Under the pieces are notes generated by a model. The model saw nothing but the letters and a program-made list of their open reading frames with translations, was not told the origin of the DNA and did not search any database. The translations under genes and the position numbers were made by a program. Shown in pieces: positions 1 to 45,699 of a stretch of 45,816 bases of DNA. The DNA comes from a virus (Duplodnaviria; Caudoviricetes): IMG/VR virus record IMGVR_UViG_3300032225_000723, positions 1 to 45,816 of that record, one strand, 5' to 3'. The number at the start of each line of letters is the position of its first letter. Positions within the stretch are counted from its first letter, which is position 1.

Positions 1-184
1 ACTCCTCAAGGTTTTTTTGTAGGTCTTGGATGTTTAAACGGGCAGTAAGAAGACCTTTTATCTCACCAACCATTGCTTTGTACTCCACGTAGTCTTTGGC
101 GCTACCGCTACCCAAGGCTTCCTGAAGTTGTGCCACTTTGTCATCTATCTTTTCAGAAAGAAGTTTTAAGATTTTGTCGTTCAT
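1..184 (-). CDS. Small protein downstream of portal (3' end truncated by window)
   Basis: Hand-translated MNDKILKLLSEKIDDKVAQLQEALGSGSAKDYVEYKAMVGEIKGLL...; ATG overlaps the portal TGA (ATGA); not in the ORF track. Confidence 0.75.
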   Translation of the reverse strand, partial: MNDKILKLLSEKIDDKVAQLQEALGSGSAKDYVEYKAMVGEIKGLLTARLNIQDLQKNLEE

Positions 185-2616
185 GTGTTGCCTTTATTGA
201 TTCGGGCATTTTCTTTGGCTACGTCTACGCCAAGGCGCAGTTTTTCCATTTGCAATTTCTCTTGAGTTTCAATGGCATGGCGTTCAGCCTCTGCTTGAAG
301 TTTTATAGATTCGCCTTGAGTTTGAGCCTGAATTCGCTGTTGCTCAACTTGAATCTGTGCCATCTTCGCTTGTGAGTCTGCGGCATCTTTTTGCTGTTTA
401 CGCTGCAATTCTGCTTGTTTGAGTTGCAATTCTTGCTGTTGTAATTGAACCAATGGGTCTTTTGCTTCCTCGTCTGCCTTCTGCTGGGCGGCTTCGCCCT
501 TGTGAATTGCCAACAACTGCTGGCTGGCTTGAGCAACGAGACGGGACAACTGCACTTCGATAGTGGCTGGCAGTTCTTTGTCTGGCGCTGGGAGAGCAAC
601 GCCCATTTGTTTTTCGATTTGCGAACGGTACTGGAATCCCAAGTGTTCTGCCATGTGCGCTTGAAGAGCCGCCATAATTTGATTGGCTTGAGGATTTTGT
701 CCTATGGTCTTAGTGACCACGGGGTCAGTCATAAATGCTTGGTGCGCTGCAATATGAGCATCGTGGTCTTGGTAAATAAACGCTTTCATTGGTTTACCGT
801 TGACCGCATTCATGTTCTCGCTAATTGGGTCAAGCGGATGAGCATCTTCATCCAGTTTGACCAGTTTCTCTGCGTTTTTAATACCCAACACTTCTAGCAT
901 CTGACGATGCAGATAGGCTAGGTCATAGAGTTGGGGGGCAGTTTGAGCAAGTTGGATAACCGCCTGATACTGGACAACCTTTTGCGATAACGTAGCAGCG
1001 TTCGGGTCCGACACGGGAATAACATCCACCAAGTCGTAATCGGACTTCTTAGCCTGTCTATCACCTTCTTCGGGGTCATATGGATATTCCTCTGGTGTGT
1101 AATCACGAATGATGTCTTTTAAAAGACGCAACTCTTGTTTCAAAGAATAATGAATACGGGCTTGTACCGCACTCATGACTTTCATGGTTCGCTCTAGGAT
1201 TGCCAGCGTAGTTCCTACTGGGGAGTTGGCTGACATATCGGAAATTTGAATGTCGGCTGCGCCAGCAAATCTGCGCCCCTCTTCCACGATTTGATTAAGC
1301 AAACTCATCAAGACTTGGCTTGGCTCCTTGTATGGGAGCGTCATGATGTTGTCTTTGATTGTTCCGCTTGGCACGTCAACGTCACGGAATTCGGCTGGCG
1401 CTATCGGGGTGTCGTCACCTTTAACTCGCAGACCCCGTGTTTTGAAACCACCCGGAAGGTTTGACAAAGTTCCTGCGTCAACAAGTTGCCTGATAAGAGA
1501 AGTACCAGACTTAGCAAAAGCACCGACAAGATGGATAAGCCCGAAACAATAAAAGCCAAAGCCCGGCACATATCCATAATGGACAAAGTGTGTCCTCTTT
1601 TGGTACGTAGAGTCATCTTCTTTCCAATTCCTGCGAATAGAGAGACACTTCCTGCTGCCTTTTTCAATCGTAACAACGTATGGTAAAGCGATGCCAGTGG
1701 GTTCACCATCTTTCCCCTTATGTTCATAGCCTTCTAAATCAAGGTTGACATGCATTTCCAATAACTTATAACGGTCATCGGTAGTGGCACGAAAGCCCAT
1801 CTTCTCGGCAATTTTCTTTTCAACCTCATCCATCGTGTTGTTGGGGTCGCCCAAATCAACATCTAGGTAGAAACCAGCGACTTGGAGTCTGCGGATTTCA
1901 TTCTCGGTCTTACGCATTACGTGAGTTACACGCTCTGCACTTTCTAAATTAGATGCGCCATAAGGCACAACTACGTCTTCTGCGGGTAGGAAAATAGCCG
2001 CTGGGCGTTCAATATTTGGGTCGTAATAGACTTTCTTAAAAGCATTACCCGATAATCCCAAGCCCCAAAGCATACGCTCGGTCTCAGGACGATACTCAAT
2101 CATTACGTCAGAGATTTGGTAATTCATGTCGTTTTGGACACGCATTGCCGCTTCTTTTTTCTCTGGAGTTTCTTTGCCAATAATCTCAGTCTTGACTGGA
2201 CCGCTGGCTGGCAGAATTTCCATAATGGTTTCTGCTTGGAATTTGACCAACGCCTCTGATAACAGGGGATGGTAGACACCGCATGCGCCAGCCCAAGGGT
2301 CGGTACGGTCTTCAATCTTCATGCCAAGGAGTTCTAATCCATCGACATAGGTTTGCATCCAATCTCTGCGGGACGATACGTCATCATCATAGTCGCCAAT
2401 TAAATCGCTAACAATAGACTGAATGGTTTCTTCGCCTAAATACTCGGCAAGGTTGTCATCAAAACCTTCTTCATCTAATGATTCAAGGTCAATTTCCATA
2501 CCATCGATATTGATGTGAACTGACTCTGGGTCTTCGATTTCAATTTCAATATCGGGTGTTTCATCAAGGCTTTCAATTCCTTGAGGGGCTTGGTACAGAC
2601 TTTTTTCTATCGACAT
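181..2616 (-). CDS. Portal protein
   Basis: 811 aa directly after terL; portal-like segments (FKKVYYDP, GFYCFGLIHL, LVDAGTLSNLPGG) and a Gln-rich coiled-coil C-terminus as in P22-like portals. Confidence 0.85.
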   Translation of the reverse strand: MSIEKSLYQAPQGIESLDETPDIEIEIEDPESVHINIDGMEIDLESLDEEGFDDNLAEYLGEETIQSIVSDLIGDYDDDVSSRRDWMQTYVDGLELLGMKIEDRTDPWAGACGVYHPLLSEALVKFQAETIMEILPASGPVKTEIIGKETPEKKEAAMRVQNDMNYQISDVMIEYRPETERMLWGLGLSGNAFKKVYYDPNIERPAAIFLPAEDVVVPYGASNLESAERVTHVMRKTENEIRRLQVAGFYLDVDLGDPNNTMDEVEKKIAEKMGFRATTDDRYKLLEMHVNLDLEGYEHKGKDGEPTGIALPYVVTIEKGSRKCLSIRRNWKEDDSTYQKRTHFVHYGYVPGFGFYCFGLIHLVGAFAKSGTSLIRQLVDAGTLSNLPGGFKTRGLRVKGDDTPIAPAEFRDVDVPSGTIKDNIMTLPYKEPSQVLMSLLNQIVEEGRRFAGAADIQISDMSANSPVGTTLAILERTMKVMSAVQARIHYSLKQELRLLKDIIRDYTPEEYPYDPEEGDRQAKKSDYDLVDVIPVSDPNAATLSQKVVQYQAVIQLAQTAPQLYDLAYLHRQMLEVLGIKNAEKLVKLDEDAHPLDPISENMNAVNGKPMKAFIYQDHDAHIAAHQAFMTDPVVTKTIGQNPQANQIMAALQAHMAEHLGFQYRSQIEKQMGVALPAPDKELPATIEVQLSRLVAQASQQLLAIHKGEAAQQKADEEAKDPLVQLQQQELQLKQAELQRKQQKDAADSQAKMAQIQVEQQRIQAQTQGESIKLQAEAERHAIETQEKLQMEKLRLGVDVAKENARINKGNT

Positions 2617-2624
2617 ATGAATTC

Positions 2625-4889: not shown

Positions 4890-4968
4890 GGTTTTTTCCT
4901 TAGTTTTTTAAACCATTGGAAAAGGTTATAAAAACGCTTTTGATACTCGGTTAAGTTATCAAAGTGGC

Positions 4969-5100: not shown

Positions 5101-5258
5101 ATTTCCCCCTTATGAGAACGTTACCCAAAGTATATACGAACGTTTAAACTTTGTGTTGGGATTCGATTTGGTCTTTGACTAGGAGAGTAGGAAAGCCAGA
5201 AAAATACCCCCATTGACATCCTCGATTGCTGGCTTAACACCCCAACGCCATTATTTTA

Positions 5259-5274
5259 TGTTCCACGTGAAACA
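5259..5274. promoter_or_regulatory. parS-like centromere site TGTTCCACGTGAAACA
   Basis: Exact match to bacterial chromosomal parS consensus TGTTNCACGTGAAACA; intergenic. Confidence 0.7.
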
Positions 5275-6170: not shown

Positions 6171-6227
6171 TCAATCCTGACTGCAATGCATGACATTGTG
6201 AGCGTGTAAACGTTGCATGTAAATGAT

Positions 6228-6253: not shown

Positions 6254-6585
6254 GCAACAGTGATTGTTTCAACGCATGTTGATGACTACATGCATCACCT
6301 CATGAGTCTCTCTTCACTACATCATCTGCACTGTTTCACTTCGTTTAAATTCCCGCTTTTCACTGGCTCATTCGGTGGCTCATTTTGTGAGCCTTTGACC
6401 ATCCTCGTTTAAACAATCTCCCTTATCAATGTTCCACGACAGTGGCTCATTGATAACCCTCTGCGTTTAAACCATCTGCATTCTCAGCCTGTCCGATGAC
6501 CTTTTTGCCACACTCCTAAGTCATTGATTACATTACGTTTTTACCGAGGGCATATAGAGTTCAAAAAAATATTTACCAAAACCCA

Positions 6586-6612
6586 TTGACAGGTTTAAAC
6601 ACGTGCTATCAT
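6586..6612 (+). promoter_or_regulatory. Sigma70-type early promoter
   Basis: TTGACA (6586) and extended -10 TGcTATCAT (6604-6612) with an A-tract upstream; spacer is short (15 bp) and contains GTTTAAAC. Confidence 0.55.
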
Positions 6613-7281: not shown

Positions 7282-7290
7282 GGAGGCATC

Positions 7291-7482
7291 GTGAAAAAAC
7301 TTTTAGAAAGTTTGGTTGTTGTTGTTTCACTCATCGTGTTCGTTCTCTTTCTGTTCGTGTTCATTCTCGATTGGACAGGCGGTTGCGGTGAGACGTACGA
7401 GTATGCGAACGGCACACTGCATCAAGGCGAGTGTGTTGGTCGTGAGTTCTTAAATTCTTATATCAAGGAGGTGTTCAAATGA
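7291..7482 (+). CDS. Small membrane protein
   Basis: N-terminal TM helix; AGGAGG RBS. Confidence 0.7.
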   Translation: MKKLLESLVVVVSLIVFVLFLFVFILDWTGGCGETYEYANGTLHQGECVGREFLNSYIKEVFK

Positions 7483-8042
7483 GCACACGTGAAGATTGGT
7501 TAAACCAAGCAGTAGAAGAGTTGCGCCCTGTGTTCGATGCGAGTGGCTTTGCCTTACCCGCAAACATTCGTGTCACGTGTGGCTTTCCATCCCGCCATGC
7601 ACGTTCGCTTAATCGTGCCATCGGTGAGCACTGGTCTGACAAGGCATCGTCTGACGGTACTCATGAGATTCTTATCTCACCAGTGGAGGCTGACCCTTTC
7701 GAGGTGTTCGGTATTCTCGTGCACGAGTTGGCTCACAGTGCGACTGACGGTGACGGTCATCGTGGTCGTTTTCCATCATGCGTTAAAGCGTTGCACCTTG
7801 AGGGCAAACCGACTAGCACCAAGGTCGGTCAACGGTTCAGAGATAACTTCGGTGCTCTCGTTGAGTCGTTGGGCATCTACCCTCATGCTCGTTTAAACGT
7901 TGGGGCTAATCGCAAGACTCAATCGACACGCATGCTCAAAGCATCGTGCCCCGCTTGTGGCTACACGATTCGTCTCACCAAGACTTGGGCTGACAGAGGC
8001 TTGCCTACTTGCCCAGTTGATGCAGTTACTTTTGTTCTTTAA
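7479..8042 (+). CDS. SprT-like zinc metalloprotease
   Basis: HELAH...GH metal-binding motif and C-terminal CPAC...CP zinc ribbon. Confidence 0.8.
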   Translation: MSTREDWLNQAVEELRPVFDASGFALPANIRVTCGFPSRHARSLNRAIGEHWSDKASSDGTHEILISPVEADPFEVFGILVHELAHSATDGDGHRGRFPSCVKALHLEGKPTSTKVGQRFRDNFGALVESLGIYPHARLNVGANRKTQSTRMLKASCPACGYTIRLTKTWADRGLPTCPVDAVTFVL

Positions 8043-9563: not shown

Positions 9564-10691
9564 ATGTTAGGTACTGACGTTAAGCGTGGTGTCGCATCAA
9601 CACTAGAGCGTGTGTTCAATTCAAATGGCGAACGGTTCGACAAGTTAGAAGTCTTGTGGACAGGGCGCACTGCGGGAATCATCTTCAATCGTACGTTGTT
9701 CAAGTGCGATGCCAAGGTGCTCTTCCCCGCCATTGATGAGACCGCACAAATCCCCAACGATACTTTCAATAACCTCATCGGGTATGCGTTGCATGAGTTG
9801 GGTCATGCATGGTTCACCGATAACAAACCTTGGGACGATGCACGTAATCGTCATGGTCACTTTGTGAGCAATCTCATCAACGGTCTTGAAGACCCACGCA
9901 TTGAGCGTAAGGTCATCGAGTCAGGTCGTGCGCCAAACAGTCGTGCGTTGTTTGAGAATCTTCTTAACTCTGTTCTCAAGCGTGATGGTTACGTTGAGGC
10001 TGATGACAAAAAGAACATTCCCTTTCTGCTTGCAGTTGAGGGTAGACGTTTAAACGGTTATCAAATCAACGTTTCAAACATCATCAACGATTCACCTTGG
10101 GCAAAGCATTTGCACTGGGCACTCAAACGTGCAAGCCAAGCCAAGGACACCGCAACGATTGTGAAGATTGCAATCGAGTTGTTCAAACGTATCAAGGAAC
10201 AAGAGCAAGCGGGTAAGTCAGAGGGCAACGAGAAGTCTGACGAGGGTCAACCTCAACAGGGTGACGGTCAAGACGGTCAGCCACAGGGTGACAAGCCCAG
10301 TGACAAACCTAGTGATGGTCAGCCTAGTGACAAGCAAGACGGTGACAAGCCAAAGCAAGACGGTGAGAACGGTCAGCCTGATGGTGAGGGTGACGGTCAA
10401 CCTGACGGTGACGGTGAGCAAGGTGACGGTTCTAATGGCTCTGACAGTGGTGATGGTCAGGACGGTCAGGACGGTCAGCCTAGTGAGTCAGACGGTGAGT
10501 CAGAGGGTGACTCGCAAGATGGCGAGGGTGGTGGTAACGGCAAGAGCGATACAAGTTTTGATGGTGGTCGTGATGTAGAACCAAGCGACTTCATTCAAGG
10601 CGAGTTGACCAAGCACTCATCGAGCGCAGACAACGTGACAAGCAGACCGTCAGTTGGCAAGCCTCGTGTTGAAACTTTTAATTGGAGGTAA
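9564..10691 (+). CDS. CobT-N-like metallopeptidase-motif protein with acidic G/D/Q linker
   Basis: HELGH and NGLEDPRIER motifs; follows the AAA+ gene; low-complexity GDGQ tail. Confidence 0.75.
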   Translation: MLGTDVKRGVASTLERVFNSNGERFDKLEVLWTGRTAGIIFNRTLFKCDAKVLFPAIDETAQIPNDTFNNLIGYALHELGHAWFTDNKPWDDARNRHGHFVSNLINGLEDPRIERKVIESGRAPNSRALFENLLNSVLKRDGYVEADDKKNIPFLLAVEGRRLNGYQINVSNIINDSPWAKHLHWALKRASQAKDTATIVKIAIELFKRIKEQEQAGKSEGNEKSDEGQPQQGDGQDGQPQGDKPSDKPSDGQPSDKQDGDKPKQDGENGQPDGEGDGQPDGDGEQGDGSNGSDSGDGQDGQDGQPSESDGESEGDSQDGEGGGNGKSDTSFDGGRDVEPSDFIQGELTKHSSSADNVTSRPSVGKPRVETFNWR

Positions 10692-10696
10692 TCATC

Positions 10697-11506
10697 GTGG
10701 CTACATTAATCAAATCAGAATGTGAGCGTAACTTTTCTTTTCAGTTCAACGCACAACCTAGTGGTCTCGGTGCTACTCGTGCCAACCTCTTGCGCCTATT
10801 GCGTTCGCTTGACCTCGTAGGTTGGAACACACACGAGGAGTCAGGACGTTTAGACCGTAAAGCGTTTACACGTTTTGCTACTGGCAGTACCGCAGTATTC
10901 AGCAAGCGTGTGCACGTTGATGCCGAGACTTCAGCAGTATCAATCTTGATTGACTGTTCGGGTTCGATGAGCAATGGTGGTTTGATTCAGACTGCCGAGG
11001 CTTTGACTATCCAGTTGTCACGCATCCTCGACAAAGCGAACGTTGAGTTCAACGTCACTGGGTTCTACGGTGAAGATGGTCGCATTCGTTCAGAGGCAAG
11101 TGGCGCAGTCAAGACTGACGTGAGCATCAAGTACGAGCGCCCTACATTCGTACCGTTCAAGACTTGGAAAGATTCACTGCAACGTGCATCTGCTAAGTTG
11201 GGTTCGATACATCAGTGGGCACAGTCAGCAACACCTGACTACTCATCAATCAGTATCACGATTGAAGAGTTGGCGCAACGTCAAGAGCAACGCAAGATTT
11301 TGTTCTTGCTCACTGATGCCAGTGGTTACAACAAGGCTCACATGAAACACTTGCAGTCAGTTGCTGACAAGTTGAATGTGAAGATTGTCGCAATCGGTAT
11401 TGGTCGCACTGATGTCAAGGAATGCTTTCGCTCAAGCGAGAACGTTACGAGCATCGATGGTCTTGCATCTGCATCGTTTAACAAGTTGCTAAAGGAGTTG
11501 CAATGA
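10697..11506 (+). CDS. VWA-domain protein (CobT C-terminal-like)
   Basis: SGRLD, MIDAS DCSGS, LLTDA, IGIG; GTG start after GGAGG. Confidence 0.85.
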   Translation: MATLIKSECERNFSFQFNAQPSGLGATRANLLRLLRSLDLVGWNTHEESGRLDRKAFTRFATGSTAVFSKRVHVDAETSAVSILIDCSGSMSNGGLIQTAEALTIQLSRILDKANVEFNVTGFYGEDGRIRSEASGAVKTDVSIKYERPTFVPFKTWKDSLQRASAKLGSIHQWAQSATPDYSSISITIEELAQRQEQRKILFLLTDASGYNKAHMKHLQSVADKLNVKIVAIGIGRTDVKECFRSSENVTSIDGLASASFNKLLKELQ

Positions 11507-12722: not shown

Positions 12723-12855
12723 GCCCAAATTTTTTAAAAGTGGGAAATTCCCCAGATGAAGGTAAAGCGTTTAAACGGTCTGCTGTTGGCGTATCCGCTT
12801 CGTTTCCTGCTTTTCAGGATTACCTGCCGTTGTTTAAACGGCAAGTGTTTACAGG

Positions 12856-14813: not shown

Positions 14814-15314
14814 GTTTGCCTTGTTACTATAAGTATTGATACACCTTGTATGTACTGCCCTCTTGGGGAGGGCAGACCTAGCCTTAAACTAGGTGTGCCT
14901 TAACAACCGCCCACATTGGCTCGATTGACCCGACAGACTTTTCATGCGAGGGACTCTGTCTTCGCCATCCCTTTTCGGTCTCTAACGCACTAACCATAGT
15001 ACCGACAATCTAACCTCTTGACCCTACCGTTTTTCATCGACAATCAAGAGCGAGTGATTATGTTACTGGGTTTCGTATGTACGTTGCAAGCGAATTTGTA
15101 AAAAAATATGGTAAACACCTAGCAACGATGTTTAAACTTTGTGATACTCAGCCGGGTCATTGACGACTCAGCCGGTAAAAACCAGATGTGCAAAAAAAAG
15201 AGAATGCGTTTAAACATTCTCTTAAACTCCGTGAAGGAGGAGGCAACTGCAATGAAGCAATCAACGTCTATTGTGAACCAATAAAAAATATTTTCAATCA
15301 GAACGTTTCTGTTG

Positions 15315-19274: not shown

Positions 19275-19457
19275 ATGTTTGAAACGATTGTTAACATTGG
19301 AATCATTGGACTTGCGCTTATCGGATTTGTTTTTGTAGGTTTCTTATGCTTTGTTTTCTTAGTACGTTGGTGGGTTATTTGGAATGAACTAAGAGAAAAA
19401 CGCAAAGAAGAACGTGAATCTAAAACGAGCGTAAAAAGCGATGACAAACTTAATTGA
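19275..19457 (+). CDS. Small membrane protein
   Basis: TM helix then basic tail; AAGGAG RBS. Confidence 0.65.
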   Translation: MFETIVNIGIIGLALIGFVFVGFLCFVFLVRWWVIWNELREKRKEERESKTSVKSDDKLN

Positions 19458-20352
19458 GTTTGGCGATTGCCGAGACATCATGAAACGTTGGATAGCCGAG
19501 GGGGTCAAGGTTCAAACTTGTATCACCTCGCCTCCTTATTTTGGATTGAGGGACTATGGACATGAACGACAGTTGGGCTTGGAAAATGATATTGGGCTTT
19601 ACGTTAGTAATCTTGTGGACGTGTTTAGGGACGTATGGAGCCTACTGTCTGATGATGGAACTGTTTGGCTAAATCTTGGGGACAGTTATTCTGGCTCTGG
19701 GAAGGGACCGAGTAAGAGTTTAAACGGTGAGCACCATGACATGGAACATAAACATTCCAAGATTGTTCCCAATGGTTTAAAACCCAAAGACCTTATCGGT
19801 GTTCCGTGGCGGGTAGCGTTTGCACTCCAAGAGTTTGGTTGGTACTTGCGCCAAGACATCATTTGGCACAAACCTAACCCTATGCCTGAGTCTGTACGTG
19901 ATAGGTGCACCAAGAACCACGAGTACATATTCCTGCTATCCAAAAATTCCAAGTATTACTTTGACAACGAGGCTATCAAAGAGCCTGTTAAAGAGGATTG
20001 GGGCACACGTGATAGAAGTGATGGCAAATACCATAACGAGGGCACAGGACTACAACCGCATAGCGGATTAGAGAAGTCCTACGAGATGGCAAATAAACGC
20101 TCTGTGTGGTCTGTAACAACCAAGCCGTTTGCTGGCGCACACTTTGCCACCTTTCCTCCCGAACTTATCGAGCCATGCGTTCTTGCGGGTAGCCGTCCCA
20201 ACGACATAGTGCTTGACCCTTTCATGGGTTCAGGAACTACCGCTGCCGTTGCTGACCGTTTAAACAGGCTATACCTTGGCTGCGAGTTGAATCAGGATTA
20301 CGAGAAGTTGCAGAAAGAAAGACTTAAACAACGTTCTTTGGAGTTGATATGA
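19441..20352 (+). CDS. DNA methyltransferase, beta-class (N4-cytosine/N6-adenine)
   Basis: TSPPY catalytic motif before DPFMGSGTT SAM-binding motif. Confidence 0.93.
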   Translation: MTNLIEFGDCRDIMKRWIAEGVKVQTCITSPPYFGLRDYGHERQLGLENDIGLYVSNLVDVFRDVWSLLSDDGTVWLNLGDSYSGSGKGPSKSLNGEHHDMEHKHSKIVPNGLKPKDLIGVPWRVAFALQEFGWYLRQDIIWHKPNPMPESVRDRCTKNHEYIFLLSKNSKYYFDNEAIKEPVKEDWGTRDRSDGKYHNEGTGLQPHSGLEKSYEMANKRSVWSVTTKPFAGAHFATFPPELIEPCVLAGSRPNDIVLDPFMGSGTTAAVADRLNRLYLGCELNQDYEKLQKERLKQRSLELI

Positions 20353-22274: not shown

Positions 22275-22536
22275 AGATGAGAAAAAACATTTCAGACGAG
22301 TCGCAGAACTTGGTTGCATTCTCTGCTGGCACATCGGCTACGATGGAACACCCTGTGAAATACATCACATTAGAAGAGGTGGTAGACGAGACGATGCGCC
22401 TGTTATCGGACTATGCCCCGAACACCACCGTGGAAACACGGGAATCCACGGGTTAGGACGTAAAGGCTTTGAGAAAAAATGGGGAACAACAGAAGAAATT
22501 CTGTTGGGCTTCACCAATCATTTACTTAAACTTTAA
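22264..22536 (+). CDS. Ref-family (recombination enhancement) HNH nuclease
   Basis: VAELGCILC...EIHHIR...IGLCPEHHRG...GIH. Confidence 0.8.
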   Translation: MATKDEKKHFRRVAELGCILCWHIGYDGTPCEIHHIRRGGRRDDAPVIGLCPEHHRGNTGIHGLGRKGFEKKWGTTEEILLGFTNHLLKL

Positions 22537-25500
22537 TCAAATTGCTTTCGTAGCATTTTGATGCGAGCAGTAATGGCAACTTGACGGTCATGAATAGCAT
22601 CTAGCGCTTGACGTTTTGCATCTGCATCTATTGTGGTGGAGTTGGTAATGGCAATTTGCATTTGACGTAAACGTTTCATGTCCTTGTCAATTAAATTGAC
22701 ATAATTCTTTAAGCCATATAGTTTGCCGTGGTCTTGCAGATACTCTTTTAAATCTTCGTTATTGCCAGTGCGCTCCAAGACATTCATAGTGCGAGTGATT
22801 TGGTCAATCTCGCTCTTCATATCATAGTAAGCGGAGACTGTGCCCGAATCGGAGGCAAAGAATCGCTTAATCACAGGCATCTGCTCTAGCCTCATACTAG
22901 CCTTAACAGGGTCACCTTGTCCACGATAAACTGCATCTAGCAGTTGCATTGCATAAGTACCCATTGTTCCTGTGTAGCCACGGATAAGGTTCTCAATCTT
23001 GATAGGTGAAGTTCCTGTCGCTGCCCCCAAGTCTTTAACGAACTGGGAAGTACCCGCATTGGATTGAAACTGAGGCGCAACGTCTTCCATGCCACGTCCA
23101 ACCACTGGCTCACCAGTAAAGAACGAGTAGTTGGCTACGTTCTCTACAATTGGTACGAACGCTTGTGGGATTGGATTGAACTGCAAGGTGCTCATTGCAT
23201 TGCGGAACAGAGCCTCTTTTAAATCTTTGCCTGTATCGTTTCCAAAAGCGGTTTCAAGCACACGCTCTGGCAGTACTTTAAATACCACACCCAATTCAAA
23301 TGGGATTGGGAATCGGAAAGGCTTGCCGTTGATAGACAGTGCTGGAACAATCCAGTAGTTATCACGCTCTTCTTTGTTGAGTTTTTTGTACTCATCATCG
23401 TCAGAGACCATGAACCAGTAAAGCATGGACATGCCCATCATTGTCAGGGCACGAGAGGCAAATGCTTTCTTCATTACGTCTGCATTTTCGGTAGCCATTT
23501 TGCCCCAACCCGAACGGTAGAGAATGTCAAGACCTTGAACACGTGCGTTAAAGAACGGAACCATTGCTGACAGAACACGGATAACTGCGTTGTTACCTTT
23601 GCGGGAGAAGTTAAGAACTTCCATTGCTTGGTAGAATGCTTCTGCTTCGCTACCAGTACGCTCAAGGGTGCGTTTATACACCTCTGCACGAGTTGCCATA
23701 TCCGATGCATGTGAGCCATGTTCCAATGCATCCCAAAATGCAGTCAGTGGTAACAGGGCTTTTTCTTGCGAGGTTCTTGCGCCACCACGTTTACGGAGTT
23801 CTTTCTCTACCATCTTAGCGGTAGAGGCAACGTCACCTGAGAAGTCATAGCCAGTTAAACCAGCACGAGCCAAAGCAGATGCTTCAGGAGATTGGTTTGT
23901 CAGCGTCTTTGTAAACTGTTTAAACGTATCAACGATAGGAGTCATGCCCGTACCGCTGGTAATCCACGCTTGCAATGAGTCACGACCTAAGTTAGCAATC
24001 ATAAAACCGGGGTCTTTGGTCACAAAGTTACGCAACAAATTGGCTGGAGCGGCAAGCCAAGATAGGAATTCCATCTGAGGAAGGTTTAAACCCTTCATAG
24101 ATTCCACCAGAAGCGGGTCAGCAACTCGGTAGTACTTGGTCAAACCTTTTTCTTTAACGGTAACAATGTCTGAACCAGTAACTCCAAGCGGAACTTCTTC
24201 TGCTAACTCCATGCGTACGGCATCACGTACGACTCTATTGGCGGCTTCGTTCTTCATGCCAGCCTCAATTGCGGCACGTGCGTTACGAACGATAGTCTCC
24301 ATGAAGTCAGCCAATTCAGCCTCGCCACCCTTGAGTTTCTTAGGTTTAGCGACACCAGCAAGGGCAGAGAACACACGAGGACCAGCCGTTGTTTCGCCAT
24401 CCAATTGACGGTAGAAAGGAATGTAATCCCAGTTTTCAGTCCACAGTTTTGCCTCTTTGTCAGAGATAACTCCTGTGTCTTTCATGTAATTGACCAAGCC
24501 TTGGTTGTACTTTTGATACTCGTTGAACACGTCCTTGAACTCAGGGAACTGTTGTTCTAACTTGTTGCCGTAATCAATGTCTTCTTTGGTAAACAACTGC
24601 TCACGACCATCAGCCAATAGACGTTTACCACGTTTTGTGCCAGCGTAAAACTGGAATGCTTGGAAGATGTCAGGATTGTTGTACTGCATCAATGGCTCAA
24701 GGATTGGAATCAAACCTTTAACTTTGCCATCCAAATCGCTTACATATGTGTAGCCCTTATCGTAGACAGGCACACCATCACGGAAAGAAGATGCCGCAAC
24801 ACCAGCCGCACGGTCAGATTGGAGGGCAGCCGCAATTGCAGAGTTCTCAGCCAACAACTGGTCAGCACCAAACTTCTCACCAATTGCTCGGCTTAAACGC
24901 TCAATGCCTTCATACTTGTTAAGGAATGCCTGACGGAAACGAGCAATAGCCGTAGGAGAAATGGCATCCATCAACCGTTCTACAAATCCTTGTTCTACTC
25001 GTTTATGGGTAGTCGCATTAATGCGATTCTGGATAGCAGGGTCAATGTTTAAACTTTTACGTTGAAAACGGATGTCTGCGTCTTCGGTAGGCTTTTGATT
25101 AAACGCAGATTTAATTTGGTTTGGCTTGAATGCCACCCAATCTCTGCCATCCTTCATGCCATCATATCCACCAGCCTGTATGACTCTTGTCATCGCATCT
25201 GTTGGAAACGTAATATTTGGGAATCGCCCTTGCTTAAAAGTCGCTACCTTTTCATTAATCCAGCCATCTCCAAGTGTTGGATTGTCTGCCCTTAATTCTT
25301 TTTCAAACTGCTCAACCATTGCTTGGGTGTGCACAGTCTTTTGTCCATAAGGGTATGGCTTTTTAATGCTCAAGAACGCTGGAATAATTTCTGCGCCTTC
25401 TTCTGCGCCAGCATATCGGTTCGCATCTTCAATGTCATGGGTAAAGTAATACCCATCAGGATTGCCAGTTCTATTTTTCTTAGGCGATGGTTTAAATTCA

Positions 25501-28500
25501 TTGCCTTCAAAGTTTGATGTTGCGTGATAAACCGCCAATGGATTGCCATCATTGTCTACAACTTTGCTGTTACCAAACCAGCGTTTAAACTCAGTAGTCT
25601 TTGGCGCTCTTAGTTGGAACTGCTCCCCTTCTTCGGCTGTTCCTCCAGTTGTTCCTTCGCTTGGCTTGTTCCATCCATATTCTTTTCCAAACTCTTCGGC
25701 AATGGAGTCGTAATCCTTGCGCCAATTGTCAAGGGTTGGTTGTATATCGGTGAGTTGTCGGGGGCTAAATCTTTCAAGGTAACCTTTGCCATCTGGATTT
25801 TCCTTCCAATTGTTGTATATGTAAGCGCTCTCAGCACGGAATGGGGTAATCGTAAACTCTACTTTATCACCACCGAACTTCTCTAGGGCAGTTTGTAATG
25901 TATCAATGTATGGCGCATCCTTCATAAAGAATGGTTTGCCATCATCTCCACGGAAATTAATAAAGTCAAATGAGTTGTCTACACGGGTAAATCCAACACC
26001 CGGCATCACCTCATCAAGATGTTTAAACAGGCTTTCTTCAAAGTCTTGGGTAATGTCCTGATTAACTGTGACCTTGTAACCTTTGCTTGCCATTTTGCCA
26101 CTGGCAGTTGGGTCAGCACGATACCAAGGAACTGCATCTTGTTTGGTTACGTAGCCAATAATTGCGGCAGTCTTGTCTGCAACGTCAGTAACGTGACCTT
26201 TCTCGTCCTTAGTTAGAACAAGTTTAGTGATGACGTTAGGGGCAATTTGGTTCTCGTAAGCACCAATAGAGTTTTGACTGCTGTAGAGTACGCCTTCGTT
26301 AAGCAGTTTAAATATCTTACTTTCGCCATCTTCGGTTTCAAAGATGTTGCGAACTGCACGATTGAACTCATCTTGTTGTTTGCGAGGCGCATTGTGGATG
26401 CCTTGGAGCATATCAATGCTGGTCGATGGGCGAGATTCCCAAGTAATGTTAGCCGTTGCACGGTTTACATAGTCAGAAAAATCGAGGGAGTTAGGTTTGA
26501 AATCCTTTTCCTTGCCTTCTGCTTTGGCTTTTTGATATTCAGTTGTGTTTTTAATGTATGTCCACAGAACGGCTTGAATTTGACGTGGCAATAGTTTCTC
26601 GCCAGCCTGAGTCAGATTGCCTTCCTTGTCATACTTGGCAGTACGCTTTTCATTGGCATCAGCAATTCTGCGAATCAAGTCTTTTGCGTACTTATATTGG
26701 GTAGCGGAAACAGAATTAGCCCCGCCTTCTTCCCTGTCTTCTGAATGAGGGTAGCCAAACAAACGCATCATCCAACGGTCAATCGTGGATGCATCCTCAA
26801 AAGTATCTGTTTTAAACGTGCCATCGTGCAAGTTTTGGTAGAAGTTCATCAACTTGTCTTCTACACCAGCAAGGTTTGTATTGAATTCTTTAGCCTTAAG
26901 AATTTCAGGGATGACTTTGGCGGTTGTCTCAGGGAAACGACCAGCATAGGCGGTAATATCACCTTTAGCCAATTGAGCCATAGACTTAATCACGGCAGTG
27001 ATGTTGCCACCTAGACTGTTTGCCTGTGAATATAAAGCGGTCAGACGAACAATCTTTTCCATCAAGTCTTTGTCGCCATGAGCAATATCAGCAATAGAGT
27101 CACCACTGCGTTCATACCAATCTTTGGACTTATCATACATAGAGTATGGGTGCTCAAGGAGGTTAGTCATGCGTTTGACTAAAGCGGTACGGTCTTTAAC
27201 GGTACGTGCATCAGGAGGCGCTCCAACAAGGTTGTCACCAATCTTGCGAATGGTTTCCTTTTGAAACTTCTCTTCCTCTGGTACGGCTTGTGGTTTTGGA
27301 GCCTTAATCTTGGCTTCGCCACGTTCAACCTTTTGGAAAATATCTTCTGCGGATTTAAAGCCGTTGAGTTTAAATGCGTTCAGCAGCGCCTTGAACAAGT
27401 CTGATAGACGTTTAAACAGGTTACCAATTAACCCGGCTGGCGGTGAAGTTCTAGAATAATTTGCAAACGCTTCGGCAATTGCTTCTTCAGCAATGAAATC
27501 ATCAAACCCTTTGAGACCACCAGTACGTTCTTTAAAGTCAGCCTTGTAAGACTCATAGACATCAGGCTTGATGTATTGCTTAATCCAATCGGACTTGGCT
27601 TTGTTCTTTAAAGTGTTCCATTCGCCATCTGTAAATGCACCTAGATTCTTAAGCGCATGGATGGATTCATGGCGCAAAGTACCCATTGGGTTTTCAGCAT
27701 TGTAAGCAATCTTGATGAGTTCACGAACGTAAGACCCGTCAGCCTGTCCGTCTGCAATGCTTTTGACAATGTTTAAACCGACACGCTCCAAACCAAAACG
27801 TTTTAGAGTTGGTAATAGCGACTGACGAATCTTTTCAAAGTTCTCTTCGACCTTTGGTGTGTACATGCTGGCACGGACTTCAATGCCTTTTGGCGCATTA
27901 CCAGCACGTCTTTCAAGTTCTTTTTTAGCGTAAGCGGCATAGCGCTTTGGCAAAGTACCTTTGGTGGTAGGGGCAGTATCAATAATTTGCTGGAGCATAT
28001 CGTTGCTCACAACAAAGTCACCGTCCTTATTCTTACGCATTAAACCAAACTGTTCAGCCAAATCCTTTTCTTTAAAGGAGGCAACTGGCTTGCCTTCTTC
28101 ATCGTAGAAAACATGCTTTTTGTTTACAACAGGCTTCTCGCCCATTGGCACAACCTTTAATGGGTTGGTCAGATTCTGAATTTCTTTCTCGTGGAACGCA
28201 ATCTGAGCCTGTGCTTTACGAATCCGAGCACCCATGTCAGCAGATAAGGCATCGTGGGCTGGAGTTCCAAAATAGCCTTGGGACTTATTGATGTCCAAAG
28301 CGGTGTTCATGCTTTCAATGGCTTTGTTTAACTTCTCTACCTTATTACGGATAGGTTGAGCCAACTTCTCATTGATTGCCGCATGCTTTATAGAAGAGGC
28401 TTGGGCTTCTTCGGGTGTTTTAACACGGTCAAGAGTGACGCTACCGTTCTTAACTTCGTAGTTTTCTGGGACAACTCCCTGTTTAAACTCTTGATTACGG

Positions 28501-30185
28501 ATGTCAAAACCTTGCGGCAGCGCTTCAGACTTTCCAGCAAAAGCAATGTTGACTACGTTTCTATCCCGACCATCTACTTTGCGGGTGGTAATACGCTCTT
28601 CAAGGTCACCCCTGTTAATGGCATGGCGCAAAAGAGCACTGGCATCCCAGTTATCTTTAAGCCCAGAGGTGTCTTTAATATCATTAATGACACTAGTTCT
28701 CCCCATTACATCGGTGTCAAAAAACTCGTACTCAGCCTTTAAATTTTTTAAGGCTTGGTTGTACTGCTTGTCCGAGAACCGAACTGCGTTTGTGCCTTCG
28801 GGCAAAATTTGCAACGTCTTAGACTCAGGGATTTTGCGTAGCGCATCGAACGCTGAATAGAGTTGAACTGGACTCATCGCCTCTAAGTTGTCCGTCCCAG
28901 TAGTACGCATCAAGAAATCGTTGAAACCTTGAGTGCCTGTCTCTACGTTCTTGTTCTTTGCAGTTTCAATAACGGTATCTACGGTTGGTACAACCGTGCC
29001 GTCATAGCCCGTCTTATAGGTTAAGAAGTTATCCAACGCACCTTGTTTAGCCTCTGTTGTATCAGAACTGTGACGTAAAGCGTCTACATAGTCTTCTAAA
29101 GAGTAGGAAGATAAACGTGGCTTGCCGTTGTCTTTGCGGTCTTTGTTGATATACGCTATTTGGTCAGGAGTAAGTTCACCCTCAACAAAGTTACCTAATG
29201 GATTTTGGAATGGGTCGTACTTGCGCTCATTTAATAATTGTTCTTCAGGCGCTGGCAACATCAGCATTTCTGATGGGCGTGGAGGCGCTGCTGTAGGAGT
29301 TGGCTCGTTTAAACGCTCTTGAGTCTGCTGCGGGAACGCTTTGTCAAATTTATGACCAACAGTTCCAAACGCACCACCAAGTACTGCACCGCCAATAAAG
29401 TTTTCGTAATAGGCTTTACGAGCCTCTTCATCTGCAATATTTTGACCAGCCTGTAAACGTTGCAAAAATTCTTGTCCTACTTCAGTAGAACCTTCAATAC
29501 CAGCAACCTTAGTGCCAGCCAATGCATATTCTCCAGCCGTAGCCAACATGCCTTTTTTGGCAACTTCTTTGGCTACATCATCCGTAATTGATATACCAGC
29601 CTTGCCAAAGATTCGGTTAACAATTGGAAAAGCCTTAAGAGAAAAAGTGTCTAGAGCGGCTTGTGGTATAGCCGTAGCACCCGCTTTAAGAAGACTTGTA
29701 TCGGCAAGACGTGTGCCATCTTCCATTTGAGCGGCTAAGTTTGAGCCTGTATATTGCGCTGCACCAGCAGTTAAAGCACCAAGGGTAGCAGCACCAATAC
29801 CAGCAACGGCTAACTCTGGGGCGGCAATTGCGGCTGCGCCAGCACCAACAATAGGAGCAACAATGTACGGTACTGAACCGCCTAAAGTCTCTTTAAATTT
29901 GGTAAACGGGGCTTCAGTCCAACCTTCTTCGGTTGGTTTAAACATCTTTTGGGCTTTAATGTCTTGCTCACGTTTGTACTTCTCTGCTTCTTCTAAACCC
30001 ATTAGTCCAGTTTTAGCAAGAGTCAAAGCGCCTTCGCCCTTCATCCGTTCATAGGATGACTTTAAAGCGCCAGTAAAACCCGTGTCAGGTTTAACTTCTG
30101 GCTCTGTAGATACTGGGGCTTGCCAACCTTGTTCCCAAGGTTGCTTGGCTTGTTGTGACCAATTCTCTTCCCAAGGATTAGCCAT
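22533..30185 (-). CDS. Giant polyvalent virion/ejection protein (metallopeptidase-like, glycosylase-like, ART-like and LPD38-like domains)
   Basis: 2550 aa; HESIH; TIDRW...PRQIQAVLW; [12 protein letters not shown]...VYHAT...GYYFT...NQIKS; C-terminal [10 protein letters not shown]. Confidence 0.75.
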
Positions 30186-33210: not shown

Positions 33211-33211
33211 G

Positions 33212-35608: not shown

Positions 35609-36078
35609 TACATTTGTCCTTCACGCTTTGGTCCAAGCACTGTAGTTACACGATAGCCACCGCCTTTGGTTTTTTGAACCGCATAGCCCATCGTTGGTTT
35701 ACCGTCTACATCGGGATTGATTTCTGAACGGTGTTTTTGGACATATTTAAAAATGCTTAATAGAGTTGGGTCTTCAAAGTCTGTAACCATGACATCAAAA
35801 CCAGCCATGTACATAGCCTTTGCATAGTCAACGCTATTATTTAAGTAATTGTTTGCTGTATCAGCGTTTAAAGCACGAAACAAAGCAGTACGGTCTTTGC
35901 CGGGATGAACAATAAAAAGGGTATTTCCTTGACGCATAAGAATAGCGCCAGATTCATGGGCTTCAGCAGTCACTGCTGCAAGCACTTGGTCTGGAGAATA
36001 CTTAGACTTTGTCTGCTTTGTAGCCTCAAGAATAATCTCAGGCGGGTCTAGCAATTTCTTTTTACTGTCAACTAGCAT
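35608..36078 (-). CDS. Putative GNAT-like acyltransferase
   Basis: 156 aa; strand/helix pattern ending YAKAMYMAGFDVMVTD...LSIF resembles a GNAT fold; sits where podoviruses often carry an acetyltransferase-like gene. Fold call is an inference. Confidence 0.45.
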   Translation of the reverse strand: MLVDSKKKLLDPPEIILEATKQTKSKYSPDQVLAAVTAEAHESGAILMRQGNTLFIVHPGKDRTALFRALNADTANNYLNNSVDYAKAMYMAGFDVMVTDFEDPTLLSIFKYVQKHRSEINPDVDGKPTMGYAVQKTKGGGYRVTTVLGPKREGQM

Positions 36079-37196
36079 TGTGCATCCTTAAAAATTGCAG
36101 CGGAATACACGTTGCCCATTCCAGCCGCAAGGCTCAAAATCAAACCACCCTTCTCTGATGGGGCTGGTTCGCTAAGAAAAACCTTGTCTTCGTCTGTACG
36201 GTTAGCAATTGCTGGCACAAAACCGTTTTTGATATTATCCAACAATAATACAGTTTCAAGCAAGCCGCTTGCCCCCATAGTATGCCCGATTCTTTGTTTA
36301 AACGATGTTGCCACAAAATCGTTCAAAATGCTAGTCAATGCATGTCTTTCTGCAATATTATTTGACTTTGTTCCTGTGCCGTGAGTCTTGACCGTTCGTA
36401 TCTTAGAGCGTTGGACTTGGGACATGTACAACGCACCTTCAATGGCTCGTTTAAATCCTTGCCCATCTTCTCGTTGACCAATTGCATTTGTTGAGTCTTC
36501 GCCTGATGTGTAAGCCCCCATGAGTCGGGCTTTAGGTTTAAACCCTGTCAGTTTCATGCTTTCTTCAGTCTCAAAGACAGCAAAGACTGCGCCTTGACCT
36601 ACATGAAAGCCATAGTTCTTCTCATCAAAAGCGCTAGGAATAATGCCAGCATCATCGTCTTTTGCCGTCAACACTGCGCCTGATTCACCAAAGAAGTTTA
36701 GTACCGCATTGGTTACCGCATCTTCCACACCTAAAACAATGACTCGCTCCATGCCATACAACTTAATCAAGTTGTAAACATCCATCATCACCTTGAGACT
36801 AGACGCACAGGCTGATGCATCAGTCATAACGTGATTGGTCACTCCACAAGCACTAGCCGTCCGTCCAGCATAAACTTGCGTCAAAGCCATTGGCAAAAAC
36901 TTGTAGGTGTAGGATAGTCGGGTTTTCCCTAAGTCTACAGGCTCTATCCCTGCAAAATGGGCATTCCCAGAAGCAAGAATAAAAGCAGTACGGCAACGGT
37001 TTTCCCGCAGCGTTTGAAGCAGTTCTTTGTCCAGCACTTTCTCAGCCAAACGGTGGGGCGCATAAATCATCCCCGTGTCTTTCCCCTTGTAGGTCTCTGG
37101 AAACCAGTGAACTCGTTGTGGAAAATGTTTTAACTCATCAATAAAATCGATGTTTTCGGTACATGCAGTGCGGGTTTCGGTAAGGTAAATCACCAA
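36072..37196 (-). CDS. Beta-ketoacyl-ACP synthase (FabB/FabF-like)
   Basis: Cys-His-His triad: DASACASS, KTHGTGT, KQRIGHTMGASG; GQGA and AAGMG motifs. Confidence 0.92.
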   Translation of the reverse strand: MVIYLTETRTACTENIDFIDELKHFPQRVHWFPETYKGKDTGMIYAPHRLAEKVLDKELLQTLRENRCRTAFILASGNAHFAGIEPVDLGKTRLSYTYKFLPMALTQVYAGRTASACGVTNHVMTDASACASSLKVMMDVYNLIKLYGMERVIVLGVEDAVTNAVLNFFGESGAVLTAKDDDAGIIPSAFDEKNYGFHVGQGAVFAVFETEESMKLTGFKPKARLMGAYTSGEDSTNAIGQREDGQGFKRAIEGALYMSQVQRSKIRTVKTHGTGTKSNNIAERHALTSILNDFVATSFKQRIGHTMGASGLLETVLLLDNIKNGFVPAIANRTDEDKVFLSEPAPSEKGGLILSLAAGMGNVYSAAIFKDAQC

Positions 37197-37477
37197 TCTA
37201 CCCCTTTGATGGCTTCTTCAACAGTGCCAGATGGCTCTTTAGTTTTGTGCAACTGTATAAAATCCCAGCATTCCCTAGCCGATTTAAACGTCATTTCTTT
37301 GCCAATTTCATCTGGAATGCCATAGATGTCACAGAAATAAATGCACATCATCATGCCATCCATACTATCTAGACCAGTATCTTTTAGGTCATCATCTAGA
37401 GTAACGATGGGCGTAAAGTCTTGATGGGACGGTATTGCCGTACGTGCCACCTTGTTAAACAGTTCAATAAAGTCCAT
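37190..37477 (-). CDS. Acyl carrier protein
   Basis: 95 aa acidic protein; LKDTGLDSMD phosphopantetheine-Ser motif; YGIPDE; overlaps the KS start. Confidence 0.8.
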   Translation of the reverse strand: MDFIELFNKVARTAIPSHQDFTPIVTLDDDLKDTGLDSMDGMMMCIYFCDIYGIPDEIGKEMTFKSARECWDFIQLHKTKEPSGTVEEAIKGVDW

Positions 37478-39970: not shown

Positions 39971-39978
39971 ACATAACC

Positions 39979-40901: not shown

Positions 40902-40903
40902 AG

Positions 40904-41301: not shown

Positions 41302-41306
41302 TTTTT

Positions 41307-42040: not shown

Positions 42041-42043
42041 TTT

Positions 42044-43177: not shown

Positions 43178-43178
43178 A

Positions 43179-43930: not shown

Positions 43931-44490
43931 CCTGCAATCTCCATCAAAGTTATGTACGAATCAAATCCACTACCTATATATGAGCCGTTAAAATAAACAA
44001 GTGTTGAGCCGGGATAGGCAGTTATTTGCACTGTATAAGTAACGGCAGAAGTTGTAGCGGGGGAATCAAGAATTATTATATTGCCTGTTGCTGATTGAAT
44101 TTCAGAATTACTTGCAGTACCACAATGAGCGCCAACATATCCCGAAATTCGTGTTGCCCCTCTTTTTAAGCCTAACGAAGAGGCAGCATTTATTGTTGAG
44201 TTATATGCTGATTGATGCGTTGCAGTTACCATTACTAAAATTTTGTTTGATGTAGATGATGGCGTAATTGTTGCGGTAAGCGCAGTATCATAATAAGTGC
44301 CAAACGTAGCAGAAAACGATTGCCGTGTTGAGTAAACGCTTGTAACAACTTGCAATACTGCTCCTGTGCTGACATTGGTCAACATTGTTCCTGTTACGGC
44401 AGGAAGCGTAATAGTATTTGTACCCGCCACGTTAGGTGCGGATAGGGTAATTGCCCCGCTTGTGTTACCTGAAATGACAATTGAACTCAT
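43927..44490 (-). CDS. Tail fibre module
   Basis: VLQVV...ITPSSTSNKILV...DSPATTSAVTY...ITLMEIAG. Confidence 0.7.
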   Translation of the reverse strand: MSSIVISGNTSGAITLSAPNVAGTNTITLPAVTGTMLTNVSTGAVLQVVTSVYSTRQSFSATFGTYYDTALTATITPSSTSNKILVMVTATHQSAYNSTINAASSLGLKRGATRISGYVGAHCGTASNSEIQSATGNIIILDSPATTSAVTYTVQITAYPGSTLVYFNGSYIGSGFDSYITLMEIAG

Positions 44491-44502
44491 ATATTTTTCC
44501 TT

Positions 44503-45699
44503 TTAGAAAACAATCCAAGTTTGACCACTTGGCACTGTTACAGAACCGCCAGAAGCAATAGTGATTGGTCCAACACTTGAACCGTTATACCCTGTTGGGA
44601 ATGTGTAATTGCTAGAAATGATTGTGTAGTTGGTATTAATACAGTTATCTGCTGCTGCCCCGCCAATACCGCCCCATGATAGACCGTTATAACCTTCAAA
44701 ACTTACTGTCTCTGAATTGAAACGCAACATGCCAGATGTAGGTGCAGGACGTTGTGCAGTCGTACCCTTAGAGATTGTCAGTGCGCCTGTTGAGGAAAAC
44801 ACTGAATCTAGAGCAGCGTTTACACTGCCAGCCGTTGCATTAATGTTTCCTGCGGTAGCAACAATATTTCCAGCGGTTGCGGTAATGTTTCCTGTGGTTG
44901 CAGTAAATCCAGTTCCAGCAGTAATGCTTCCAGACAAACCTAAAGAATTTGACCACTGTGGAGCGCTAACCCCAGAGTTAACAGTCAATACTTGCCCAGC
45001 AGAACCAATATTTAAAAAAGTTGTGCTGTTGGTATTATTTTGATAAGGCAGTGAGCCAGTATTGCCACCCAACAAATTAGAGGCTGACAGGGTAGATTGC
45101 GCTGACCAGACGGGAGAAGTCCCATTGGATGTCAAAACATAGCCGTTTGTGCCAATGCCTAACTTGGTCATTGCCGTGCCACTGGCGTAATACATCAAAT
45201 CGCCAGCAGTAAAGGTGTTTAAACCAGTTCCACCACTGGTTGTCAGCAAAGCAGAAGTCAAAGTCAAAGAGCCAACATATGCTACGGGGAAGTAGTTGGA
45301 CGCTTGAACCACGTTAGTGGAATCCACATACACAGCGCACTTGTATCCATTAGGAACGGTAATGCCTGTTCCTGCCGCAGTTTTAACCAAAATGCTGGTT
45401 GCACTACTGAGGTTGTTCTCAATAATGTAGTTTTTATAAATTGTAGGAACAATCAGACTACGAGTAACCGTATTTGTGCCTGTGCAATTCAAATAGACAT
45501 TGCGGAAAGTCTGATTTGTAGTAGCGGCAACGGGGGTTAAAGTGACATCTGCGTCTGTAAACGCTACGTTCGCACGTCCAATAATGGCTTCTTCAAAAAC
45601 GTACTGGAAGTTATTGTTGGTCGAAGCACCCCAGATACCAGTTTGTTCACCAGTACCGATTAACTCGATGTATAAGCCAGACGTTGTATATGTTGACAT
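44503..45699 (-). CDS. Tail/fibre structural protein
   Basis: Thr/Gly/Ser-rich; GEQTGIWG, GTTAQRP...GMLRFN, GPITIASGGSVTVPSG. Confidence 0.7.
   Translation of the reverse strand: MSTYTTSGLYIELIGTGEQTGIWGASTNNNFQYVFEEAIIGRANVAFTDADVTLTPVAATTNQTFRNVYLNCTGTNTVTRSLIVPTIYKNYIIENNLSSATSILVKTAAGTGITVPNGYKCAVYVDSTNVVQASNYFPVAYVGSLTLTSALLTTSGGTGLNTFTAGDLMYYASGTAMTKLGIGTNGYVLTSNGTSPVWSAQSTLSASNLLGGNTGSLPYQNNTNSTTFLNIGSAGQVLTVNSGVSAPQWSNSLGLSGSITAGTGFTATTGNITATAGNIVATAGNINATAGSVNAALDSVFSSTGALTISKGTTAQRPAPTSGMLRFNSETVSFEGYNGLSWGGIGGAAADNCINTNYTIISSNYTFPTGYNGSSVGPITIASGGSVTVPSGQTWIVF

Follow-up and report, generated by a model that had tools for sequence, protein, structure and literature searches.

In the repressor-stoperator system of the cluster A mycobacteriophages (L5 and Bxb1; also Streptomyces phage R4), one phage protein has tens of sites, some in promoters and most elsewhere, a site lies upstream of the regulator's own gene, and the words vary by lineage along with the protein (accessible portions of PMC6550527 and PMC10276819). 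HIP1 (GCGATCGC) of cyanobacteria is an 8-bp palindrome that is far overrepresented, falls in all reading frames, and bends codon choice; the accessible part of PMC4390886 describes it as chromosomal and tied to cognate methyltransferases. Proteins of the SprT/Spartan family (PF10263; SPRTN, Wss1) have an HExxH zincin fold followed by a zinc-binding domain, and SPRTN is activated by DNA in general, functions in crosslink repair, cuts DNA-bound proteins in the presence of DNA, and cleaves itself on DNA (PMC5128726, in its accessible text). Phage SprT-like proteins have been treated as proteases directed against host proteins (accessible text of PMC7824862). Here we describe an iterated palindrome, GTTTAAAC, in the virus record IMGVR_UViG_3300032225_000723 (the window, the whole 45,816 nucleotides analyzed) and the SprT-like zinc-ribbon gene at 7479 to 8042 (plus strand) with which it appears, changes, and vanishes.

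The array shares with stoperators an abundance of sites for what is probably one phage protein: stoperators number 20 to 30, including the early promoter, and the window has 40 sites, one of them in a putative early promoter. Stoperators are asymmetric 13- to 14-bp sites without dyad that are oriented with transcription, whereas the word described here is an 8-bp perfect palindrome or near-palindrome whose variants have no fixed orientation. The stoperator reader is a helix-turn-helix monomer, whereas here a zincin with a zinc ribbon tracks the word, in phages whose hosts belong to many groups and which often lack an integrase. Unlike HIP1, the word is phage-borne and densest in control and early regions, and unlike SPRTN, the protein covaries with a fixed word through its ribbon, its protease being often dead or absent. 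We favor, with moderate confidence, the reading that the 40 copies are the operator array of a SprT-family zinc-ribbon repressor that acts on its own promoter and on early transcription; direct binding of the word by the ribbon is very probable. Such a protein would be a genome-wide repressor of a kind not recognized before, and our literature search, with most subscription papers and bioRxiv supplements outside its reach, found no published report of GTTTAAAC, GTTTACAC, or GTGTAAAC linked to a SprT gene.

The preliminary description of the window had reported 40 copies of the palindrome by hand count, about one being expected at roughly 44% GC. A recount of the whole window found every listed start exact and none missed (32 to 45224, no strand, 0.87 per kb), the GC content is 44.7%, and the expected number is ∼1.0 from base composition, 1.4 from an order-2 Markov model, and 3.0 from an order-3 model. 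The flanks G and C surround 40 of the 86 TTTAAA hexamers, with only 8 for the next flank pair, so bias toward the hexamer does not explain the excess. Within a set of 53 genes, 30 copies were seen versus 2.8 ± 1.7 (maximum, 11) in 300 synonymous-codon shuffles and a mean of 0.9 (maximum, 4) in 300 codon-order shuffles. Hexamer or codon bias as the cause is ruled out by these flank counts and shuffles. The copies steer both codon and amino acid choice: in the gene set, 19 of the 22 [RCSG]-L-N peptides are encoded by GTTTAAAC, as are 11 of the 18 of the form x-F-K-[RQHPL], and the tripeptide R-L-N occurs 10 times versus 2.4 expected, about four times too often. Of the 10 copies outside the set, 2 (at 32 and 21879) are read as lying in an open-ended and a short open reading frame (ORF), and 8 are intergenic. 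Beyond the eight letters, C..G is only weakly preferred at the flanks.

Comparison with relatives at a synonymous divergence of at least 30% found the site retained in 95 of 214 aligned cases (identical residues in 106) and, within sites, survival of the TTA codon in 100 of 155 instances, compared with 493 of 1,978 elsewhere, in pairs that are not independent and are dominated by a few genes. We conclude that GTTTAAAC in the window is real and under selection. One-mismatch variants are not depleted in the window (35 seen versus 27 ± 4 expected), which rules out HIP1-like conversion of near-matches, and the copies there are spaced no more regularly than random (coefficient of variation [CV], 0.90; P = 0.34). 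Their density is 1.1 to 1.3 per kb over 6171 to 30185 and 0.45 per kb in the ejection, tail, and lysis block. The palindromes AGCT, GATC, GGCC, and CGCG are absent from the window, in agreement with the avoidance noted earlier, and CCWGG is also wholly absent. The avoided restriction sites differ among relatives, in different subsets, and are unlinked to the GTTTAAAC array.

Enrichment extends to related phages, as the preliminary description had asked to see: of 80 loci identified by their terminase, about 66 carry at least 0.4 copies per kb, irrespective of GC content or of which restriction sites are avoided. HTVC023P has 2 copies, and DSL-LC04 has none. A scan for three close copies returned 123 viral loci, of which 80 had long flanks; in many of these 80, the copies formed only a local cluster. 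Four further groups are rich in the word throughout and have almost no genes in common with the window or with each other: the L142 group; L143; phages of 34% GC that encode GroEL; and actinophage-like genomes of ∼40 kb, in which a WhiB-like ORF, recognized by eye, is our basis for inferring the host. At least five phage groups with little else in common thus have the word. Cultured carriers include phages of Arthrobacter, Microbacterium, Streptomyces, Escherichia coli, and others, often with the word in the form GTTTACAC. The same scan applied to 4 of 64 parts of a metagenome collection gave 119 loci, mostly short contigs and local clusters, with a few word-rich contigs (L497, L505, L509, and L551) and one locus that held the SprT gene. 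Three proviral or partial records (G286, G223, and G228) have local GTTTAAAC clusters and no detectable SprT gene; their clusters probably reflect other readers or AT bias.

Protein clustering of 17 word-rich loci from the viral scan found a single family present across all groups, with homologues of the SprT-like ORF at 13 of the 17. A homologue is present in 38 of 50 records searched, and the three complete records without one have local clusters or modest counts only. Twenty-nine window proteins match anything in 18 other SprT-gene-bearing genomes, 17 of which are clearly word-rich; the SprT-like protein is the most widespread, being found in 15 by tblastn and in the remaining 3 by profile. 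By these comparisons, the word is tracked by the SprT-like zinc-ribbon ORF, a gene that the preliminary description had not named. Homologues occur in 164 GenBank records, and the window protein is 42 to 47% identical over ∼180 residues to the "SprT-like protease" of actinophage clusters AZ, EH, and EB (for example, Lizalica gp46), a direct homologue with a proposed bearing on lysogeny; in the accessible text of that report, a function like that of SPRTN is predicted and no binding site is given (bioRxiv 10.1101/2025.05.26.655371).

The protein (187 amino acids, phrog_6361) is encoded by the third gene of the early operon and is the presumed reader of GTTTAAAC. Its HExxH zinc-protease motif (H82-E83-H86; 7722 to 7736, plus strand) is intact in the window and lost in many word-rich relatives. 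The C-terminal zinc ribbon (7893 to 8039, plus strand), with conserved C157, C160, and C178 and a basic QxTR arm (Q148, T150, and R151), is predicted to be the DNA-recognition module. It stands alone in some phages as genes of ∼55 to 60 codons at the head of the early operon that gene callers easily miss (L102, 12467 to 12622; G256, G263, and G266). The structure model has a predicted local distance difference test (pLDDT) score of 92.5, and the ribbon model scores 80. The zincin domain resembles SPRTN (6MDX; Z = 8.0), Wss1 (Z = 7.2), and abylysin (Z = 8.0), the N-terminal fold matching SPRTN and Wss1 with a Foldseek E value of 0.015; CapP is a weak Foldseek match (E = 0.18). PF10263 matches four of seven aligned members and not the window protein itself. 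A fold search with the ribbon alone returned only generic zinc ribbons, none at an E value of ≤0.001 and no close solved match; no solved relative of the protein was found by sequence; and a protein atlas search with the ribbon gave a best score of 0.83, a lead only.

Eighteen cultured phages with a homologue were examined out of the 164 records. All 14 with a full-length gene are enriched for GTTTA(A/C)AC, with reversed-pattern controls of 0 to 1, the arm having been inspected in all of them except Emotion and GardenState. Counts are 43 in Henoccus, 42 in Stuff (as GTTTACAC), 20 in Yang, 17 each in Emotion and Liebe, 16 each in Percival and GardenState, and 15 in 4A; per strand, they are 17 in R5C, 16 in Pan1, 7 in Arya, 6 in HeidiAbel, and 4 each in Persinger and Mano. 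The four homologues in which the arm or ribbon is altered, with no QxTR arm, are accompanied by 0 (Dismas, Armstrong, and Epa43) or 1 (CN1) site. Dismas, Armstrong, and Percival have one host strain in common and yet have 0, 0, and 16 sites. Phages without the gene (HTVC023P with its 2 copies, DSL-LC04, Ashes, Attoomi, GMA4, and G261) have no array, Ashes, Attoomi, and GMA4 being free of sites, and all 62 DSL-like loci of at least 6 kb without the gene are low (maximum, 0.17 per kb).

Among gene-bearing loci of at least 6 kb, a set that includes duplicates and loci selected for the word, a density of at least 0.4 sites per kb was reached by 57 of 57 with an intact HExxH, 34 of 39 with a dead protease, 13 of 13 with the ribbon only, and 0 of 8 from a second SprT zinc-ribbon subfamily, GRNTNL. 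Median density is 1.74 per kb where HExxH is lost, 1.53 where the domain is absent, and 1.11 where the motif is intact. Complete genomes of the actinophage-like clade, chosen by terminase, follow the same pattern: those with a dead or ribbon-only gene have 28 to 57 sites per strand, the one without the gene has 0, and those with a GRNTNL gene have 0 to 4. The GRNTNL subfamily (L431, L429, L600 to L665, G257, and G258) pairs instead with iterated TGTCTTAA(G/T)AC; G257 has 35 copies of TTAAGACA versus 2.9 expected, and 52 of 55 GRNTNL loci iterate GTCTTAA at ≥0.6 per kb, though these loci are one clade and count as one evolutionary event. Two of the five low dead-protease loci, L409 and L410, encode a QxTR-type protein and iterate GTTTAGAC (13 and 26 copies, the latter versus 0.3 expected). 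The word therefore tracks the zinc ribbon and not the protease, since it persists where the catalytic motif is lost and where the protease domain is missing altogether. In phiAsp2 (L667), ∼14 copies of a longer repeat starting TTGACACTTCAC were seen (24383 to 24399 and 25020 to 25036 among them), one of them directly upstream of a distant SprT homologue, pas43.

Of 27 actinophage-like loci found by their terminase, 26 have a site in the 150 bp upstream of the gene, and site density in these loci rises from <1 to 3 to 6 per kb at the SprT-gene (early) promoter. Such an upstream site is also present in 9 of 11 cultured phages, beside −10 or −35 hexamers by eye. Density in the window's own group peaks at 3.2 per kb 1.0 to 1.5 kb upstream of the gene. 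In the window, this peak is the cluster at 6407, 6465, and 6593, one of the control-region clusters noted earlier. The copies at 6407 and 6465 (6407 to 6472, no strand) lie where the small terminase gene and the early operon diverge, in the control region that separates them. The third, at 6593 to 6600, falls in the spacer of a putative early promoter (6586 to 6612, plus strand; TTGACA, 15-nt spacer, TG-TATCAT) and is the predicted operator of the SprT-gene operon. The promoter-spacer placement claimed earlier is recovered by eye and not by a consensus scan, which requires a spacer of 16 to 18 nt; when 80 loci of relatives were searched with a strict promoter pattern that places the word in the spacer, 1 matched. 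Intergenic sites are in excess in Yang (8 of 20) and Percival (6 of 16) relative to 8%, and the asymmetric variant is evenly oriented in Stuff (21:21) and Henoccus (20:23) and skewed in Yang (14:6).

Sequence comparisons across unrelated phages thus demonstrate selection on the word, its phage-borne distribution, and its covariation with the gene, the ribbon arm, and the promoter. Because the word appears, changes, and vanishes together with the zinc-ribbon gene, the copies are likely landing sites for the phage protein. Under the operator reading, the ribbon tail would bind the palindrome, probably as a dimer, repress at copies that overlap promoters, including the protein's own, and act as a roadblock at intragenic copies, damping transcription along the genome; it may function in lysogeny or in a nonintegrated carrier state. 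The zincin domain, which many word-rich phages have in an inactive form or lack, would be accessory, likely for dimerization or as an off switch, and by analogy with the self-cleavage of SPRTN on DNA, an off switch is suggested for protease-intact forms. Cluster AZ has no known immunity repressor, the SprT-like protein is listed as a candidate, and Liebe, which has a frameshift in the SprT-like gene, forms clear plaques where Maureen forms turbid ones (accessible text of bioRxiv 10.1101/2025.05.26.655371). EH phages and Zeta1847 are turbid with no repressor found, and EB phages are lytic, in the accessible text of PMC7302621; this split is matched by sites in EH and none in EB. The protein is a candidate for the missing immunity repressor of clusters AZ and EH.

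Several observations weigh against this reading. Liebe and Maureen differ at three further positions, related phages are not independent samples, and most copies are intragenic. SWEP2 (ON528933.2, AZ-type) keeps an integrase and 20 sites with no detectable SprT gene; its sites are largely at Liebe's positions and the cassette before the integrase is replaced, which fits a recent gene loss but does not prove it. G216 has the gene and only 11 sites in 60 kb, with only a weak relaxed signal. In R5C and 4A, the nearest 150 bp to the gene contain no site, an exact site lies within 150 bp upstream in only 1 of 6 inspected GRNTNL regions (2 more lie just inside the gene), and in the window's group such a site is found in 5 of 54 loci (47 of 54 within 1.5 kb), since the gene is third in its operon. 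Even spacing in Percival, Yang, Stuff, and Pan1 (CV, 0.34 to 0.56; P ≤ 0.0014) is not required by simple repression; it is marginal in HeidiAbel and not seen in Mano. No tyrosine or serine recombinase was found in any of five complete genomes, including those of three relatives of the window, so prophage immunity is not the general role; in the window's group, the conservation of parS and DnaA-box clusters leaves room for a nonintegrated state.

Two other readings keep the same protein-word pair. It is unlikely that the ribbon instead tethers a DNA-activated protease every 1 to 3 kb to clear host proteins (defense nucleases, silencers, or crosslinked proteins) from phage DNA, the promoter copy only setting its level. 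The SPRTN- and Wss1-like fold, the cutting of DNA-bound proteins by SPRTN (accessible text of PMC5128726), the even spacing in four cultured phages, and the intact HExxH of the window would all suit such a tether, but arrays are equally or more dense where the motif or domain has been lost, and four protease-intact homologues have no array. It is quite unlikely that the protein is a phage nucleoid or counter-silencing factor that, by spaced binding, compacts, bridges, or insulates phage DNA, or breaks host silencer filaments on the early region, without repressing it. That role would agree with the lack of orientation bias in Stuff, with regular local spacing (adjacent-gap ratio of 0.48 ± 0.01 over 418 gaps versus 0.39 for random), and with the steep rise in density at the early promoter of actinophage-like genomes. 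It would also agree with the large terminase gene, in which the window has a copy at codon 483 (2679 to 2686, no strand) and relatives have only a single copy, whether at codon 483, at 494, or at 364, so that the places are mutually exclusive. Against it, some copies overlap promoter elements or immediately precede start codons, and Liebe's clear plaques point to lysogeny control.

A host origin or host reader of the word, through a HIP1-type methylase and repair cycle or a host nucleoid protein, with the SprT gene merely traveling along, is improbable. It would account for the SWEP2 array without the gene, and the host evidence for the window is weak, consisting only of a Burkholderiaceae metagenome-assembled genome that contains fragments of the window's phage family. 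Counts of GTTTAAAC cover that one likeliest order, Burkholderiales, in which none of 201 genomes exceeds 0.04 per kb versus 0.87 in the window (the set includes one unpublished genome, G028, on which no claim rests); a host HIP is ruled out for the sampled order. One genome, G067, was the only one sampled with GTTTAAAC in excess of its control (82 versus 24 in 2.0 Mb). The word also occurs in phages whose hosts span several phyla, phages that infect the same strain have different counts (16 in Percival and 0 in Dismas), and sister phages switch the word along with the SprT subfamily. The HIP1-like site proposed in the preliminary description thus found no support, with no enrichment in the 201 genomes of the order and with the window's methyltransferase in none of the 18 gene-bearing genomes. 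Its other suggestion, a binding array for a phage protein, agrees with the distribution and covariation of the word, which appears selected and behaves as such an array. The readers that it had named are all encoded in the window, but each is so rare in the 18 genomes (methyltransferase, 19441 to 20352, 0; LexA-like, 4; ribbon-helix-helix-like, 4; AT-hook protein, 1) that they are ruled out, recognition of the word by any of them being extremely improbable.

A bolder version of the operator reading is possible but doubtful. A mobile gene would encode a Spartan-type immunity repressor whose ribbon reads GTTTA(A/C/G)AC and whose zincin, triggered by single-stranded DNA, cuts itself, giving RecA-independent induction. 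It would have spread between unrelated phages, each evolving tens of operators, with the word switching upon a subfamily swap, and abundant integrase-less freshwater phages would be carried in a plasmid-like state through host parS and DnaA boxes. In LexA and CI repressors and in the zincins IrrE and CapP, which are triggered by single-stranded DNA, a DNA-binding domain is coupled to a protease, a possible off switch. CI uses a serine peptidase and RecA, and IrrE and CapP cut a separate repressor, whereas the repressor proposed here would combine the two parts in a single zincin polypeptide.

The window is a fragment, without a terminal repeat, of a podovirus-like phage and encodes a portal, terminase, primase-helicase, Erf, CobS/CobT-like proteins, a 2,550-residue polyvalent protein, and an endolysin; its terminase is 52 to 59% identical to those of HTVC023P, HTVC027P, and DSL-LC04, and complete relatives are 58 to 64 kb. 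Ten sites lie inside the polyvalent gene (22533 to 30185; ART-PolyVal, LPD38, and DUF7178 domains). Further copies, none assigned a strand, lie upstream of the leftward LexA-like and terminase genes (5142 to 5149, intergenic), within the SprT-like gene (7891 to 7898, a copy that 20 of 39 aligned relatives share), in the gap where the early operon and the primase-helicase gene converge (two at 12769 to 12839), and upstream of the leftward HNH and primase-helicase genes (two at 15130 to 15215, that at 15208 in a terminator-like hairpin). One-base variants that are dominant words in other phages occur between 6204 and 44825, as the GTTTACAC type at 6204, 10864, 37675, and 44818 and as GTTTAGAC at 10848. 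At 5259 to 5274, upstream of the LexA-like and terminase genes, is what we take to be a canonical bacterial parS-type palindrome, also found in ∼30 of the 80 terminase-found relatives, which suggests the use of host ParB. Presumed DnaA boxes, TTATCCACA, form clusters of 3 to 6 within the control region next to the early operon in many relatives (G003, 46349 to 46389; G216, 46292 to 46468; G222, 37301 to 37355; also L094, L127, L139, and L102), with no cluster within the window; a literature search found no paper on such clusters in these phages. A FabF-like ketoacyl synthase and an acyl-carrier-like ORF (36072 to 37477) lie in the virion gene block, a pair common to the window and the otherwise unrelated L142 group. 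A CobT/vWA-like protein is split over two ORFs behind a CobS-like ATPase (9564 to 11506), with the same split in L085.

The operator and reader proposed here are named for cultured phages whose repressor is stated to be unknown, those of Arthrobacter cluster AZ and Microbacterium cluster EH and Zeta1847, so that the missing-repressor question of cultured actinophages becomes directly testable, as it does in E. coli with HeidiAbel_Bas97. If the operator reading is true, a family annotated as proteases would become sequence-specific regulators, with a 50-residue DNA-reading module that has natural specificity variants (GTTTAAAC, GTTTACAC, GTTTAGAC, and TGTCTTAAGAC). One regulator-operator pair would then be common to several phage families and host phyla, with an effect strong enough to alter protein sequences, and there is a hint that common integrase-less freshwater phages may have a repressed state.

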